A DNA stretch of 34,790 nt, from the IMG/VR virus record IMGVR_UViG_2585427727_000020, one strand, 5' to 3'. The position numbers and the translations under genes are program-made. This stretch comes from a virus. Its lineage: Duplodnaviria; Heunggongvirae; Uroviricota; Caudoviricetes. This document shows positions 4,034 through 30,024 of this stretch, piece by piece. The notes under the pieces were generated by a model. That model saw only the letters and a list, made by a program, of their open reading frames with translations. It did not search any database and had not been told where the DNA came from. How positions within the stretch are numbered: the stretch's first letter is position 1; each line of letters opens with the position of its first letter.

Positions 4034-4578
4034 GCCTCCATCGCTTTATCAGGTTTGTCGGTGTTACTGCCCTGACCGTTCTCTCTGTGACGATGCCCGT
4101 TATAGGCAAGCCGCATCGCTGACATGGTGGTGCCGCCGGAGTCGCACAGGTCTTTCACCTGTCCGGTCACTTCAAGGTCCATTTCAAAACGTGCTTTAGG
4201 TGAATTGCGAAACGTGATCGTTTTACCTGCACCGTCCACCACGATCCCCTCCCGGGTCAGCGTCACGGACTGCCCCTGATCGTCATAGACAGCCACCTCA
4301 CCCGTCTGCAGCCCTTTCAGGCGGTAGCGCCGGTCCGACACCGTAACAACCACCGCATGAGAACGGTCGCCATCCGGAAACAACACCACCGCTTCCGCAC
4401 CGCTGTTTGCCCTTGCGGTAAAACCGTAGGGTTCAAGATGTTCAACCCCGGCTTTGGGTTCACCGGCAATCAGGGACACATCCACGGTCTGACATTTCGT
4501 GGCGGCACTGATGCTTTTCACCACCGCCCGCCCAATCAGGCCGAGGAGTTGTCGCTGTATGGTTTCAATCGCCTTCAT
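4030..4578 (-). CDS. Baseplate assembly/spike protein (Mu gp45 / gpV-like)
   Basis: 182-aa ORF with start overlapping the upstream stop; beta-rich N-terminal domain and synteny with the hub and gp46-like genes. Confidence 0.6.
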   Translation of the reverse strand: MKAIETIQRQLLGLIGRAVVKSISAATKCQTVDVSLIAGEPKAGVEHLEPYGFTARANSGAEAVVLFPDGDRSHAVVVTVSDRRYRLKGLQTGEVAVYDDQGQSVTLTREGIVVDGAGKTITFRNSPKARFEMDLEVTGQVKDLCDSGGTTMSAMRLAYNGHRHRENGQGSNTDKPDKAMEA

Positions 4579-5657
4579 CAGAACGGGTCCTCCTGTACTC
4601 TGGCTTTTTTCTTTTTCCGCGCGCCGGGGGCTTCGGGTTCAGGCAGATAAGCATCAGGTGGGCCGACACGGATTTCCGTCAGGGTGCCATTCTGGTCCTG
4701 AGTAAACGTGACTTCCGAGACAAGCAGTTCGGTATTGTCGAAACCACAGACCGGATCGAAGACAATCACCCGCTGGTTGGGCTGCCACAGCGTACCGTTA
4801 CCCTGTCGCCAGCCCTGCACCACATAGGTGGTTTCATCCGTCCGCGCCGCCCGTTGCCGGGCTTCAAAGTCAGCACGGGCAATACAGCCTGCCCCCGTGG
4901 CCTGCCCTGTCTGCCTGATATACATCGGACGGTAACGGGCAATAAATGCGTCCTCTGTGCGGGCCCGCAGCGCGGTGGTGGTGGCCTCACCGAAATCATC
5001 GTCGTTTCCGGCACGCTGCCCCGCCACCTGGTAAACTGAAAACCGCTCCCGGATACTCTTCTCCGTATCACAGGAAAGGATGTTTTCCCCAAGTACCAGC
5101 GCGGTATGTGCCCGCGTTGAGCCAATACCGCCAATCACCAGCCTGCCGTGCGGGTCGTCATAAGCCAGCGCCTGCTGCTGACCGAGTATTTTGTTGATTA
5201 CCTCAATCACCGTTTCACCGTGATCAGGCTGGACATCAGGAATAACACCCGACGGCGCACCGCTGTTCACCACCTCAATGCCGAAAGGCGCAGCAAGCGC
5301 CTGCGCAATCTGTACCAGCGATCGTCCGTTAAACTGTGTCGGTTCGGCTGCACAGTCAATCAGGTCAGCGGTCAGACTGCGTCCGGCAATACCGGTGCTG
5401 ACCGAACGGGCATCGTAACGAACGGGCGTCGCCTCCACCCAGCCGGTGATCACCAGCTCATCACCAATCAGCACCTCCACTTTTGAACCGTTTTTAATGC
5501 GCGGCTGAAGCGTGGTGATACCCTCATCTCCCGGCCACTGGCGGGTGATCTCCACACTGAAATCCCGCGCCAGTCGTTCAACACCGGCACCGATGCGCAC
5601 CGATGTCCAGCCATTCCACTCCCGGCCATTTACCCGTAGCGTGACGTTATCGTTCAT
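4578..5657 (-). CDS. Mu gp44-like baseplate hub protein
   Basis: 359-aa ORF between the DNA-circularisation-like gene and the spike gene in a Mu-type tail module; ends with a lysine-rich tail (ARKKKKARVQ). Confidence 0.6.
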   Translation of the reverse strand: MNDNVTLRVNGREWNGWTSVRIGAGVERLARDFSVEITRQWPGDEGITTLQPRIKNGSKVEVLIGDELVITGWVEATPVRYDARSVSTGIAGRSLTADLIDCAAEPTQFNGRSLVQIAQALAAPFGIEVVNSGAPSGVIPDVQPDHGETVIEVINKILGQQQALAYDDPHGRLVIGGIGSTRAHTALVLGENILSCDTEKSIRERFSVYQVAGQRAGNDDDFGEATTTALRARTEDAFIARYRPMYIRQTGQATGAGCIARADFEARQRAARTDETTYVVQGWRQGNGTLWQPNQRVIVFDPVCGFDNTELLVSEVTFTQDQNGTLTEIRVGPPDAYLPEPEAPGARKKKKARVQEDPF

Positions 5658-6982
5658 TGTACTGGCACCTTCAGAGGGATCACCGGCACAAAGCCGGGAT
5701 GCGTAATGGCATTACGCCGGATAATGTCCGCGTCACGCGCCGCGTTATCAAACCAGGTCGCCGCCAGCACCAGCGCGGGTAAAACCTCATCCGGCGTGCG
5801 CTGAATGATCCGTGCAGACTGTTCAAGGCGCGTGTTGATATCCGCATTCAGATCTGCTTTCACCCGGCGCAGCGCCAGAAACAGCGCATCACTGGTTGTA
5901 CGGGACAACTCCTTATCAATTGCCGTATTCAGTGTGTCGCGAATGTCAGTCAGTTCTTCCCACGTCGGCAGATCAACCGTGTTTTTCACCGCCGGTGCAT
6001 TGTTCAGTGCCGGATGCGTGACGGAAGGCCAGCCGGTGCTCTGCGCAGCTGTTGTTGCCTGCCCCACTGCGGCATTCTGCATCACCGCGGAAGTTGTTGG
6101 CGCAGGCAATCGGGTGACGGCATACGCCGCTTCGCTGATTGCGGTCGTACGAAGGGTGCTGGCAACCACGTTACGCTGCTGCGTCGCCGTGGCGGTGGTT
6201 TTACTGTCCGTTTTCCAGACGCCGCGCGGTTGCAGATCGCTGCCGAGGCTGACACCGGAAAGCGTTTTGATCATGGTGACCAGGTCGCTGGCGTTACCAT
6301 AAAGGCGTTTCCCGGTACGCCACATTTTCTGCACCTGCTCAACGAAATTTTTGCCTGACGATGGCGGCGGCAGAAGTACCGAGATATCCCCCTGCAACAG
6401 CCTGGCGGCATCCGATACGGCAGAATCCACCACTTTCATCGCATCAGAAATATACCCAAGCATTGTGCCGGCATTACCGACGACGTCGTTCTGCACAAAA
6501 TCTGCCACGCCATCGATACTGAAACCACTGAAACTGTCACTGATGCAGTCATCCAGTGCAGAACAGGATGACATCAGCGTCTGCGCCGTCGCCGCACCTG
6601 ATGTGGGGTAAGAGAGTTCTCCCGCTTCGACAAACTTCAGGTCAAAGCGGACAATACGCCCTTCACTTTTCGATGTGCTGACCCGAACTTCCCCGTCAAC
6701 ACAGACTTTCAGCTCACCATATGTCGGGTGGACAAGCGTGCCGGGACCGGGTTTATTCAGCGCTTCAATCAGGCGATCGCGCTGGTCAAAGCAGTCATCT
6801 CCCACCACATAAGCTGTGATGGACGGGCGGAAAGTGACTTTTCCCAGATCTTCGGTATAGGGTTTGTCGCGGTTCGGATATTCGTGTGTTTCCACACGAC
6901 GGCCGGTTCCCGCACTTTCTTCTTCAACCTTAAACGGCACACCTCGAAATGACGCATCCTGAAGCCTGTCTTTCCACGTCAT
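5654..6982 (-). CDS. Mu gp43-like DNA circularisation protein (tail module)
   Basis: About 440-aa ORF immediately after the tape-measure region; N-terminus (TWKDRLQDASFRGVPF...HEYPNRD) is typical of this family. The ATG at 6980-6982 is preferred over the ORF-track GTG at 6988. Confidence 0.7.
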   Translation of the reverse strand: MTWKDRLQDASFRGVPFKVEEESAGTGRRVETHEYPNRDKPYTEDLGKVTFRPSITAYVVGDDCFDQRDRLIEALNKPGPGTLVHPTYGELKVCVDGEVRVSTSKSEGRIVRFDLKFVEAGELSYPTSGAATAQTLMSSCSALDDCISDSFSGFSIDGVADFVQNDVVGNAGTMLGYISDAMKVVDSAVSDAARLLQGDISVLLPPPSSGKNFVEQVQKMWRTGKRLYGNASDLVTMIKTLSGVSLGSDLQPRGVWKTDSKTTATATQQRNVVASTLRTTAISEAAYAVTRLPAPTTSAVMQNAAVGQATTAAQSTGWPSVTHPALNNAPAVKNTVDLPTWEELTDIRDTLNTAIDKELSRTTSDALFLALRRVKADLNADINTRLEQSARIIQRTPDEVLPALVLAATWFDNAARDADIIRRNAITHPGFVPVIPLKVPVQ

Positions 6983-27935: not shown

Positions 27936-28007
27936 ATATGTACCTCCGGTGTACATATTACATGATTGAAATGAACCTTCAAGATACTTGTACCTTAACG
28001 GTACAAG
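27936..28007. promoter_or_regulatory. OR-like operator region between cro and cI
   Basis: Two palindromes built on a TGTACC/GGTACA half-site: ATATGTAC-N7-GTACATAT (27936-27958) and CTTGTACC-N5-GGTACAAG (27987-28007). Confidence 0.5.
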
Positions 28008-28022
28008 GGTTTTAATTTCGTT

Positions 28023-28697
28023 ATGAAAACAATCCATGACATCCGGCGGTCTAACGCCAGAAAACTGAGAGATGGTGTTGGCGGGAATTCTTCCTTTGCC
28101 ACTATGATTGATCGCGAGCCAACCCAGACCAGCAGGTTTATGGGAGATGGTGCTACTAAAAATATCGGTGACAACATGGCACGACACATCGAAAAATGTT
28201 TCGACCTGCCTGTCGGATGGCTCGATCAAGAACACCAGACAACGAACATCACAAAAAAACCTGATGTTTCAATCACTAATAAACAAATCACATTAGTCCC
28301 TGTCATATCATGGGTACAGGCCGGAGCATGGAAAGAAGTTGGATATTCTGAGGTTGATTTGAGCACAGCAGAAACGTATCCCTGCCCTGTACCCTGTGGG
28401 GAAATGACTTATATCTTGCGGGTGATAGGTGATTCAATGATTGATGAGTACCGCCCGGGAGACATGATTTTTGTCGATCCTGAAGTACCTGCCTGCCACG
28501 GTGACGACGTTATTGCATTGATGCACGATACAGGTGAAACCACCTTCAAAAGGTTGATAGAAGATGGGACACAGCGTTATCTCAAAGCGTTAAACCCAAA
28601 CTGGCCTGAGCCTTACATTAAGATCAACGGTAATTGCTCTATAATTGGAACTGTGATTTTCTCAGGAAAACCAAGAAGATACAAAATCAAAGCCTAA
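28023..28697 (+). CDS. CI-type prophage repressor (N-terminal HTH, C-terminal S24 LexA-like peptidase domain)
   Basis: C-terminal domain has the S24 Ser/Lys dyad context (RVIGDSMIDEYRPGDMIFVD ... TFKRL); divergent from cro across the operator region. Confidence 0.85.
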   Translation: MKTIHDIRRSNARKLRDGVGGNSSFATMIDREPTQTSRFMGDGATKNIGDNMARHIEKCFDLPVGWLDQEHQTTNITKKPDVSITNKQITLVPVISWVQAGAWKEVGYSEVDLSTAETYPCPVPCGEMTYILRVIGDSMIDEYRPGDMIFVDPEVPACHGDDVIALMHDTGETTFKRLIEDGTQRYLKALNPNWPEPYIKINGNCSIIGTVIFSGKPRRYKIKA

Positions 28698-28708: not shown

Positions 28709-28733
28709 GAACCTGCTTCGGCAGGTTTTTTTA
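28709..28733 (+). terminator. Rho-independent terminator after cI
   Basis: Stem AACCTGC / GCAGGTT with TTCG loop followed by a T7 tract, 12 nt after the cI stop. Confidence 0.6.
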
Positions 28734-28736
28734 TAC

Positions 28737-28770
28737 TTGACAATGTACCCTTGAGATACATAATGTACCT
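28737..28770 (+). promoter_or_regulatory. pL-like early promoter with OL-like operator repeats
   Basis: TTGACA (28737-42), 16-17 nt spacer, CATAAT-like -10; two direct AATGTACC copies (28742-49, 28762-69) share the operator half-site seen between cro and cI. Confidence 0.45.
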
Positions 28771-28931
28771 AAGAGAAACAACAAACAGGCAGGACGCCCA
28801 CGAAGTAGCCGCCTGGGGCATATGAAGTCCAGGATGATTCGTTAGCAACAAAAAAGCGCCCTACAGGACGCTTAGCTCTTTAACAATCTGGTCCCCATCA
28901 ACAAGTAACTGATAACTTGAGGAGGTGTGAA

Positions 28932-29138
28932 ATGCACAAAACAGAACCCAAAATCGTCGCGCCCGGATACACAAATGAGGAAATTTACGAGTGGATGGCA
29001 AAGAAGCTGGCAGCTATAAACCAGCTTCGTGAAGTGCTGTCTTATCGACAGGAAACAATAGACTCCTTAAAAAAACTGGATCAGGAAATCACGGTTTTAT
29101 CACAGGATGTTACTTTAGATATTGTGCAGACAAATTAG
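28932..29138 (+). CDS. Small hypothetical protein, first gene of the early-left transcript
   Basis: 68-aa ORF from the ATG preceded by GGAGGTG (MHKTEPKIVAPGYTNEEIYEWMAKKLAAINQL...); the ORF-track frame starts 15 nt upstream. Confidence 0.4.
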   Translation: MHKTEPKIVAPGYTNEEIYEWMAKKLAAINQLREVLSYRQETIDSLKKLDQEITVLSQDVTLDIVQTN

Positions 29139-29544
29139 GATCCCATTCATTTTCGTCAAAATCATCAAAGTGATGAATTTGTGATCTCCAGTCTCGATAA
29201 TCTAAAAATTTCTGGGCGGTTACGCTTATTTTATCAAGTGTGAGTTCATCCTGAATTGAAAGAAGAAGTTCATCAAATTTCATCTCATTAATCTGTTTTG
29301 GCATCCAGTGATGCTTCATCAGAATAAGGTGAACCAGAGCCTTTTTCCCATTCAACTGATTATAGGGAGTGCCGAATTTCTTCCGGTGCTCATGTAAGAC
29401 AAGATCCAGAAGAGTAAGTAATGTTGCCCTTGATTCCACTTTGCTTATTTCGACTGATGACACTACCCCACTGATTTCAATGCCCCGATACTTTCCAACA
29501 TTTTCACAGTGGGATTTGTACAACGTGTAGATATTACCGGACAT
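29110..29544 (-). CDS. Low-GC hypothetical protein encoded antisense to the early-left operon
   Basis: 144-aa ORF, AT-rich, convergent with and overlapping the upstream small ORF. Contains an Rx6H segment near the C-terminus (RDWRSQIHH) weakly reminiscent of HEPN motifs; no family assigned. Confidence 0.55.
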   Translation of the reverse strand: MSGNIYTLYKSHCENVGKYRGIEISGVVSSVEISKVESRATLLTLLDLVLHEHRKKFGTPYNQLNGKKALVHLILMKHHWMPKQINEMKFDELLLSIQDELTLDKISVTAQKFLDYRDWRSQIHHFDDFDENEWDPNLSAQYLK

Positions 29545-29558
29545 TTCTTTTCCTTTTG

Positions 29559-29612
29559 CGTTGTTGGGGATAACCAGATTAACCGAATCCTTGTTGTTGG
29601 GGAATAACCAGG
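29559..29612. repeat. Two direct repeats TTGTTGGGGA(A)TAACCAG upstream of the 29110-29544 gene
   Basis: 17-18 nt units about 33 bp apart, 17-68 bp upstream of the start codon; candidate regulator binding sites. Confidence 0.4.
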
Positions 29613-29840
29613 TCCACCTCGCCTGATGTGGCTAAAAGCAGGCACATAACAGCTAAGTATTTTCAACCAGAGAGAATCCTTAGCGTTGTGGTGAATGCTG
29701 CTCAGCGCACGCGGGTTAAGGTTGAGGCTGACAGTCGACCTTCTGTGGATACCCACCCGCCTGGTGTGCAACCTTCGCCAGGCACCGGGAGGCACCCGGC
29801 ACCACAACTTTATGCTGTGTGTAGTCTTGGCGGTACCAGC

Positions 29841-29892
29841 TTGTACCCTTGCTTCCGGCTGGTACCGTCCTTTTTACAAAACAGAGAAGAGC
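29841..29892 (+). terminator. Strong plus-strand stem-loop with T-tract (candidate tL-like terminator or 3' end of a small RNA)
   Basis: CGGTACCAGC and GCTGGTACCG form a perfect 10-bp stem around a 17-nt loop, followed by TCCTTTTTAC; lies in a 450-nt GC-rich non-coding gap. Confidence 0.5.
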
Positions 29893-30024
29893 ATCACCGG
29901 ACGACGGGCTCATAACTCAATCCATCCGGGCGGCTGCCACCGCAGGTGTTCTTCTCTGTTTTGTGGAGAAACTAATCGGCCTTGCAGGGTCGATATGATG
30001 AGGAGCAGCAAAATGGCTAGCGAA

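Follow-up and report, generated by a model that had tools for sequence, protein, structure and literature searches.

The locus studied here raises the question of why a prophage should keep a gene that faces its own early lytic transcription, and in which phase of the phage's life such a gene would be of use. It lies in the IMG/VR virus record IMGVR_UViG_2585427727_000020, a stretch of 34,790 nucleotides (nt) that is called the window below and that represents an Escherichia coli prophage of the SfIV/SfV/e14 type. The gene in question encodes a protein of 144 amino acids (aa) from an ATG start and occupies positions 29110-29544 of the minus strand. The open reading frame (ORF) was confirmed where an earlier note, made from the sequence, had placed it, inside a pL-type operon and against its transcription. 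We assign it to the ECs1072 family of phage-associated proteins and regard it, with high confidence, as a real gene in a conserved antisense module; by kind, the element probably belongs to the antisense prophage morons beside the immunity region. Tentatively, and with somewhat less than even confidence, we read it as an accessory gene of the prophage state that would be wired, by convergent transcription, against a partner gene of the lytic phase.

The earlier note had left room for the ORF to be a spurious antisense frame, and such frames have a local precedent, as the annotation of phage SfIV contains doubtful overlapping ORFs (SfIV_35 and SfIV_34) in this region. The evidence collected for the protein, however, argues strongly against it. 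The sequence matched the curated NCBIfam model NF033230 ('ECs1072 family phage-associated protein') with a score of 157.8 bits, the cut-off being 70, and with residues 4-144 aligned to profile positions 2-142, and it matched PHROG 5286 (phrog_5286) with an E-value of 1.5e-90 over residues 1-144. An identical protein, WP_000016389.1, is present in the RefSeq annotations of E. coli. A full HMMER scan of 1.8 billion representatives recovered 76 diverged family representatives at 50% identity, which are of equal length, the full-length members measuring approximately 143-175 aa and mostly 145-155 aa. In comparison to the Escherichia albertii allele, the ratio of nonsynonymous to synonymous substitution rates (dN/dS) was 0.20 at a dS of 0.83. 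The AlphaFold model, based on a 58-sequence alignment, was confidently predicted and all-helical, with a predicted local distance difference test score (pLDDT) of 91.8 and a predicted template modelling score (pTM) of 0.85, and the grand average of hydropathy (GRAVY) of -0.47 was in line with a soluble protein. Taken with these results, the probability of a spurious frame is practically nil. The AT-richness described in the earlier note was also reproduced, the GC content of the gene being 38.2%, while the window has 50.9% and the following 400 bp have 54%. The two family names are catalogue names only ('hypoth_equivalog', 'unknown function'). In the literature searched, no function was described for the ECs1072 family, WP_000016389 was mentioned in no paper, and ECs1072 itself appeared in a single microarray table.

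The direction of the gene was determined relative to the elements of the immunity region. The LexA-like S24 repressor gene (ymfK/cI; 28023-28697, plus strand) was recognised from the ORF list, Pfam and the RefSeq annotation, and to its left lie the cII-like ymfL and the cro-like ymfT, each on the minus strand. On the other side, the repressor gene is followed by an intrinsic terminator (28709-28728) and then by a near-consensus plus-strand promoter, TTGACA-16-CATAAT (28737-28764), which was found in a consensus scan and scored 12.9 bits with a weight matrix. This promoter was classified as pL-type because it overlaps two operator-like sites, TGTAC-N7-GTACA (28744-28760 and 28764-28780), matching those located between cI and cro at 27939 and 27989; elsewhere in the 34.8-kb window, perfect copies of this motif were present between cI and cro only. 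The early-left operon downstream of the promoter contains, on the plus strand, yfdP, yfdQ, yfdR, xis and int. Since the cI terminator, the promoter and its operator sites all precede the 144-aa gene on the plus strand, the gene is antisense to the pL-type operon. Many E. coli chromosomes matched the 1.3 kb surrounding it with 100% identity, and the identity to Shigella phage SfIV was 98.7%.

The first gene of the pL-type operon converges on the 144-aa gene. It extends from the ATG at 28932 to the stop codon at 29138 on the plus strand and encodes a coiled-coil-like protein of 68 aa. It was assigned to the YdfC family by a match to phrog_1744 (E 4.8e-34) and by tblastn, which gave 38-39% identity over 97% of the query to the annotated ydfC of PPompW and other phages (E 1e-8 to 2e-8). 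Pfam and NCBIfam contain no model for this family against which the partner could be tested, and neither gave a match. The function of YdfC is not known (bioRxiv 10.1101/2025.03.22.644768). The two coding regions overlap at their 3' ends by 29 nt (29110-29138, both strands), in agreement with the overlap with a small convergent ORF reported in the earlier note. Immediately beside the TAG stop codon of the partner lies GGATCCCA, from which the conserved W134-D-P of the 144-aa protein is translated. On either strand, the palindrome TGGGATCCCA reads as W-D-P; it is the source of the nearly invariant W134-D-P in the large protein and yields 'PWDP' or 'LWDP' in the partner proteins of the Serratia, Salmonella and Klebsiella modules (positions 6391-6400 of locus L006, 3247-3256 of L014 and L015, and 29137-29145 of the window).

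The same arrangement was followed through 15 distinct loci, which included family members down to approximately 21% identity and whose contexts were gathered protein by protein. At all 15 loci the ECs1072-like gene was antisense to the surrounding phage operon. Seven of them lie on the pL side, downstream of cI (the window, L008, L009, L017, L020, L021 and L007), and two on the pR side, after cro (L018 and L022/23). In three further loci the gene is located between the Q antiterminator and the holin (Serratia L006, Salmonella ST64B (L014) and Klebsiella KPP5665-2 (L015)), in one it follows cox in a P2-type early operon (L026/27), and the remaining two are other elements (L028 and L025). A convergent, 3'-overlapping YdfC-like ORF was clear at 11 loci, marginal at two and missing from two, and wherever the pair was found the YdfC-like gene ran with the phage operon. 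The overlap measured 29-194 nt in the ten pairs for which it was determined. The two families also diverged together, with a Mantel r of 0.79 that was reached by none of 5000 permutations.

These counts bear on the view that the gene acts in lytic growth or early infection, for example in anti-defence or host takeover, from a promoter of its own and with an antisense orientation that is incidental. Many small novel-fold proteins of phage early regions are host-takeover or anti-defence factors, and no promoter or operator linking the 144-aa gene to the repressor was found; both points count in favour of this view. It is, however, hard to call an orientation an accident when it recurs at every locus in four operon types. 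Head-on transcription from pL, pR or pR' would lower expression just when a lytic function is needed, and a dedicated terminator shields pL from the antisense transcript. A lytic role is therefore, in our judgement, improbable.

The terminator in question is a minus-strand intrinsic terminator at 28844-28873, in which AAGCGTCCTGTAGGGCGCTT is followed by TTTTGTTGCT; it consists of an 8-pair stem with 5 G-C pairs and a T run, and it sits between the YdfC-like gene and pL. Given this position, the transcript of the 144-aa gene would be antisense to the entire YdfC-like ORF as well as to its ribosome-binding site (RBS) and would end just before pL. The terminator is shared with phage PhiR29_1, in which the cargo is on the minus strand, and is absent from SfV, in which the cargo is on the plus strand.

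The upstream end of the unit is marked by the two direct repeats that the earlier note had pointed out, copies of TTGTTGGGGA(A)TAACCAG located 17-67 nt upstream of the start codon. The proximal copy, TTGTTGGGGATAACCAG (29561-29577), spans on the minus strand the predicted transcript start and a CA-rich leader, while the distal copy, TTGTTGGGGAATAACCAG (29594-29611), which has one extra A, supplies the -35-like TTCCCC. Together they cover a candidate weak sigma-70 promoter for the 144-aa gene (29576-29604, minus strand), composed of the -35 element TTCCCC (29604-29599), a 17-nt spacer and the -10 element TAATCT (29581-29576). In the homologues L006, L017, L020 and L022 the best site was found at the same distance, with a TATCCT-like -10 element that ends 27-36 nt before the start codon, and the CA-rich leader was also present. 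The proximal repeat is conserved in E. albertii and PhiR29_1 and to approximately 70% in L007. By count, the repeat pair was only modestly beyond chance (0.22 matches expected in a 3-mismatch scan of the 34.8-kb window); the argument for its reality comes mainly from other phages, in which it is conserved. Two GGA motifs, of which one is within the Shine-Dalgarno sequence, were observed in the leaders of the window gene and the L007 gene. In L009, a gene for a phage-borne CsrA homologue (PF02599; 2-169, minus strand) adjoins the ECs1072-like gene.

A third copy of the repeat, missed by the earlier note, lies in inverted orientation in the leader of the YdfC-like gene, beside the left joint of the cassette described below (AATCTGGTCCCCATCAACAAG; 28885-28905), and PhiR29_1 carries AATCTGGATATCCACAACAG at the corresponding position. 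The RNA duplex predicted between the 5' and 3' repeat copies had an energy of -27.1 kcal/mol, compared to -16.4 +/- 3.4 kcal/mol for shuffled sequences. An inverted copy as a feature of the whole family was rejected: the upstream motifs shared by both genes were confined to the window and to L008, its close relative (score 23 versus a shuffle mean of 14), and were absent in seven diverged modules. Three further ideas were considered and discarded. The repeats are not CI operators, as OR and OL are the only places with TGTAC-N7-GTACA. They are not the ends of an invertible switch, as the predicted inverted junction was present in 0 of 5426 complete E. coli genomes, none of which covered at least 80% of it. 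Finally, a structured 5' leader or riboswitch was not supported, as the leader folded no better than shuffles (z +1.17).

A minus-strand transcript of this extent could also serve the phage itself. According to this explanation, the module would take part in the phage's own choice between lysis and lysogeny by braking leaky transcription from pL, pR, pR' or Pe, or a YdfC-like early function; the antisense transcription, the 144-aa protein or both would act, and lysogeny would be tightened by analogy with OOP versus cII or with the interference in coliphage 186. In lambda, the OOP antisense RNA acts on cII, and convergent promoters interfere with each other in coliphage 186. The location of the module within the first few genes after a lytic promoter (after pL, cro, Q/tR' or cox) suits such a role, as does a minus-strand transcript that would be fully antisense to the RBS and ORF of the partner, and the two families have long been inherited together. 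On the other hand, the slot is dispensable and variable, and SfV, SfII, mEp460_4F5 and Ayreon share the immunity region without the module. The purifying selection on a folded 144-aa protein shows that the protein itself matters and not only the transcription, and no DNA- or RNA-binding fold was recognised for it. We consider this explanation a minority possibility.

Expression of the 144-aa gene in the prophage state, by comparison, appears probable. It is favoured by the orientation rule, by the dedicated terminator and by the gene neighbourhood in L020, where a SieB-family gene (PF14163; 4827-5321, plus strand) lies directly downstream of the ECs1072-family gene, in the same antisense orientation and between yfdP and cI. 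An uncalled YdfC-like ORF (4278-4646, minus strand) is situated between these two genes and overlaps the end of the ECs1072-family gene. Weaker support comes from ECs1072, which gave a regulated signal in an uninduced culture of O157 Sakai (microarray, PMC2241611).

The preferred reading, that of a prophage-state accessory gene set against a lytic-phase partner, can be put as a sequence of steps. A weak promoter over the two direct repeats would drive the 144-aa gene, and minus-strand transcription would oppose the lytic operon until it stops at its own terminator (28873->28846). The YdfC-like partner, as the first gene of the pL-type operon, would be made only once the repressor is gone. The two units should be mutually exclusive because they converge and overlap. 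In a lysogen, the 144-aa protein would be made, and the long 3' untranslated region of its mRNA would mask leaky partner mRNA. After induction, or in an infecting phage, strong transcription from pL would overrun the weak antisense promoter, and the partner protein would appear. The 144-aa protein would then be useful in the prophage state, most likely by interfering with incoming phages, and the YdfC-like protein, the colliding transcription or both may switch it off, which would spare the phage's own lytic growth.

Several observations weigh against this reading. Orientation alone cannot separate protection of the host from the phage's own regulation. The consensus sigma-70 scan found no minus-strand promoter upstream of the 144-aa gene. 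The candidate promoter was the best minus-strand site within 350 nt, yet it reached 5.3 bits, in comparison to a median best score of 7.4 bits for shuffles. Thus, from the statement of the earlier note that the repeats lie in the promoter region, it can be retained that they cover the sole promoter-like site on that strand, but this site scores below the shuffled median. Neither protein of the pair matched a family of PADLOC-DB v2.0.0 (2023 library) at E <= 1, and the supplements of DefensePredictor yielded no entry. With regard to the partner, the E-values obtained with hidden Markov models for the candidates refer to tiny candidate sets, and several matches were of only 15-27 bits. YdfC-like genes were also found without an ECs1072 partner in 19 phage records of the Qin/PPompW type, while the family members in L007 and L025 had no YdfC-like neighbour. 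The pairing is thus not obligatory, and the ECs1072-YdfC association appears strong but one-sided.

The pair could also stabilise the prophage as a toxin-antitoxin or addiction module. The appeal of this explanation lies in a compact, co-inherited and mobile two-gene unit with an antisense overlap, which recalls type I toxin-antitoxin systems. A type II system is contradicted by genes that are convergent and not co-transcribed, and a type I system by a large protein that is no small hydrophobic peptide (see the GRAVY value above). No toxin or antitoxin family was found in Pfam, NCBIfam or PADLOC. Moreover, a toxin of 144 aa would be produced in the lysogen, in which its presumed antidote is under repression. 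An addiction module is accordingly rated as rather improbable.

The sequence and the predicted fold of the 144-aa protein were also examined for a nuclease, as the earlier note had seen a hint of a HEPN domain in an R-x6-H segment. If this were correct, the protein would be a HEPN-like RNase and an abortive-infection toxin, which would agree with its all-helical model. The segment R117-x6-H124 is indeed present, but its columns were the least conserved in the alignment of 58 relatives, and the nearly invariant residues lie elsewhere (R54, L64, G66, A69, H72 and W134, with R54 and H72 17 residues apart). No HEPN profile was matched in Pfam by the 144-aa protein at E <= 1 or by any of the 58 members at E <= 0.1. 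The wider profile and structure searches that had been proposed revealed no other known fold: Pfam contained no family for the protein at E <= 1, the PDB sequence set gave no match to either the protein or the family profile, and Foldseek against BFVD returned nothing below an E-value of 0.8 (best E 0.81). The HEPN reading is unsupported, because R117 and H124 are not conserved and there is no profile or fold match, and we regard it as very improbable. The protein is without a known fold or a functionally assigned family.

The pair is carried on an exchangeable cassette (28844-29613) that comprises the terminator, the inverted copy, the YdfC-like gene, the ECs1072-like gene and the two direct repeats. 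Its GC content is 40.4%, in comparison to approximately 51% for the window. Homology to SfV, SfII and mEp460_4F5 ends at 28843 and resumes at 29614, just outside the terminator and the distal repeat, while homology to PhiR29_1 ends at 28891, inside the inverted copy, and resumes at 29560, at the proximal repeat. The repeats also coincide with the recombination joints of the cassette. In PhiR29_1, the terminator and both direct repeats are retained, but the minus-strand cargo is another one and codes for a coiled-coil plus zinc-ribbon protein; in L017, a homologue of this protein adjoins the ECs1072-like gene. The cargo of PhiR29_1 is annotated as a protein of 242 aa, the first ~65 residues of which are read from a conserved non-coding region. 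The comparison with E. albertii revealed flanks, including the repeats, that are 92-100% identical, compared to 70-86% in the coding region, and the dS of the gene (0.83) contrasted with 0.19 for cI. As the coding region is far more diverged than the flanks, the allele appears to have been swapped, with the start codon and the 3' overlap as the limits of the exchange.

Among the features of a prophage moron, an own terminator, an atypical GC content (40% versus 51%) and presence or absence with sharp joints were observed, while the promoter candidate did not rise above the background. The cassette is AT-rich, exchangeable and moron-like. The slot between pL and the small RNA (sRNA) element described below is a hot spot for cargo, which includes SfV orf33 (plus strand), an HTH_17 protein in mEp460_4F5 (plus strand), a 63-aa ORF in SfII (minus strand) and the coiled-coil plus zinc-ribbon protein of PhiR29_1 (minus strand). 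Apart from the HTH_17 domain, no informative family was found for the slot cargo of these four phages.

The position of the gene, which the earlier note had equated with that of rexAB, was compared to known accessory systems. RexAB resembles the 144-aa gene as a prophage accessory function near the repressor gene. Lambda rexAB, however, sits between cI and pL/OL and is co-transcribed with cI, whereas the gene studied here lies beyond both the cI terminator and pL, on the opposite strand; no similarity to RexA or RexB was found (PADLOC at E <= 1, Pfam). As it is beyond pL and on the other strand, the 144-aa gene is nearer to the place of sieB. In lambda, P22 and Rac, sieB is likewise an accessory gene in the early-left region beside the immunity region and is probably expressed in the prophage. 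The resemblance concerns position and orientation: the SieB profile PF14163 did not match the 144-aa protein, and SieB is a membrane protein, in contrast to the soluble protein suggested by the model and the hydropathy of the 144-aa sequence. The SieB/Esc pair of P22 is a precedent for a phage-made antidote to the phage's own exclusion protein, although Esc is an in-frame internal product of sieB and the partner here is a convergent gene. By analogy, the 144-aa protein may be an exclusion factor, the role for which the earlier note had put the gene forward, with the YdfC-like protein as its antidote, a possibility that we treat as open to considerable doubt.

With regard to its wiring, the module is comparable to lambda OOP versus cII and to pR/pL of coliphage 186, in which an early lytic operon is met head-on by a transcript that overlaps an early gene at its 3' end. 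Such an arrangement would be expected to lead to transcriptional interference and to antisense pairing. The difference is that the antisense transcript would be the mRNA for a conserved 144-aa protein, and not a 77-nt RNA or a repressor transcript. The dicBF operon of Qin (ydfA-ydfB-ydfC-dicF-dicB) also presents a YdfC homologue followed by a terminator-ended sRNA element on the same strand, but no ECs1072-family gene accompanies ydfC in the Qin-type contexts seen among phage records, of which PPompW was inspected. The genes beside ydfC in PPompW were considered as homologues of the pair and rejected, as no similarity was found. In e14 of E. coli K-12 (L024, 5498-6085), ymfI (plus strand) and ymfJ (minus strand) form an identically arranged pair beside the closely related ymfK repressor gene: one small gene follows the direction of the operon, and its 3' end shares 63 nt with that of a convergent antisense gene. 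YmfI and YmfJ were rejected as homologues, with no detectable sequence similarity to either family, and were considered an analogous cargo pair.

The cassette is flanked on its right, outside the 144-aa gene, by an STnc100-like prophage sRNA element (29655-29878, plus strand), located in the GC-rich stretch before yfdP. The Rfam model RF02076 matched over its full length with 41.9 bits (E 7e-8), below the gathering score of 47, and the scan at the gathering threshold listed nothing. STnc100 has been connected with the PasD prophage sRNAs in a 2026 preprint. The 3' hairpin and U-run of the element (29829-29876, plus strand) are weakly DicF-like (19.4 bits) and should stop unmodified pL transcripts just past the cassette. 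As the hairpin would end such transcripts, pL would first yield an RNA in which the YdfC-like message is joined to antisense sequence of the 144-aa gene. For the region 29800-30015, a folding energy of -91.5 kcal/mol was predicted (z -6.05). A stem of ~25 bp (29871-29968, plus strand; arms 29876-29900 and 29940-29964) is located directly upstream of the yfdP RBS and may be cut by RNase III or gate the translation of yfdP. The 'frameshifted hypothetical protein' annotated here by the Prokaryotic Genome Annotation Pipeline (PGAP), as well as SfIV_34 and SfIV_35, are probably not genes. At the other end of the cassette, the pL leader is conserved at 28777-28843 in SfII, mEp460_4F5 and L021. Directly after a hairpin, the leader contains AGCTCTTTAACAA (28874-28886, plus strand), which is one position off the rrn boxA TGCTCTTTAACAA. 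This boxA-like sequence may be an antitermination signal in a phage without an obvious N gene; as a single match, it is not above chance by count.

The gene is already catalogued and identical copies of it are common; no description of its function, its fold or the conserved convergent pairing with YdfC was found in the literature searched. In its boldest form, the interpretation would make the ECs1072 and YdfC proteins an undescribed two-component prophage system, in which a superinfection-blocking effector and a lytic antagonist giving self-immunity would be combined, with their mutual exclusion hard-wired by convergence and with the whole mobile between operons of the pL, pR, pR' and P2 types in temperate phages of enterobacteria; we consider this unlikely as a whole. 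The exact cassette is carried by approximately 1 in 13 complete E. coli genomes (406 of 5426), and relatives occur in phages of Shigella, Salmonella, Klebsiella and Serratia. In any case, the locus illustrates cleanly how cassettes are exchanged in a nested manner, at short repeats, within the early-left region of SfV/e14-like phages. The orientation rule and the co-inherited partner offer a testable wiring for a gene that would be on in the lysogen and off in the lytic phase. If the 144-aa protein is an exclusion or regulatory factor, this would be the first function for the ECs1072 family, which so far exists only as a catalogue entry, and the first functional context for YdfC, a long-standing gene of E. 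coli K-12.

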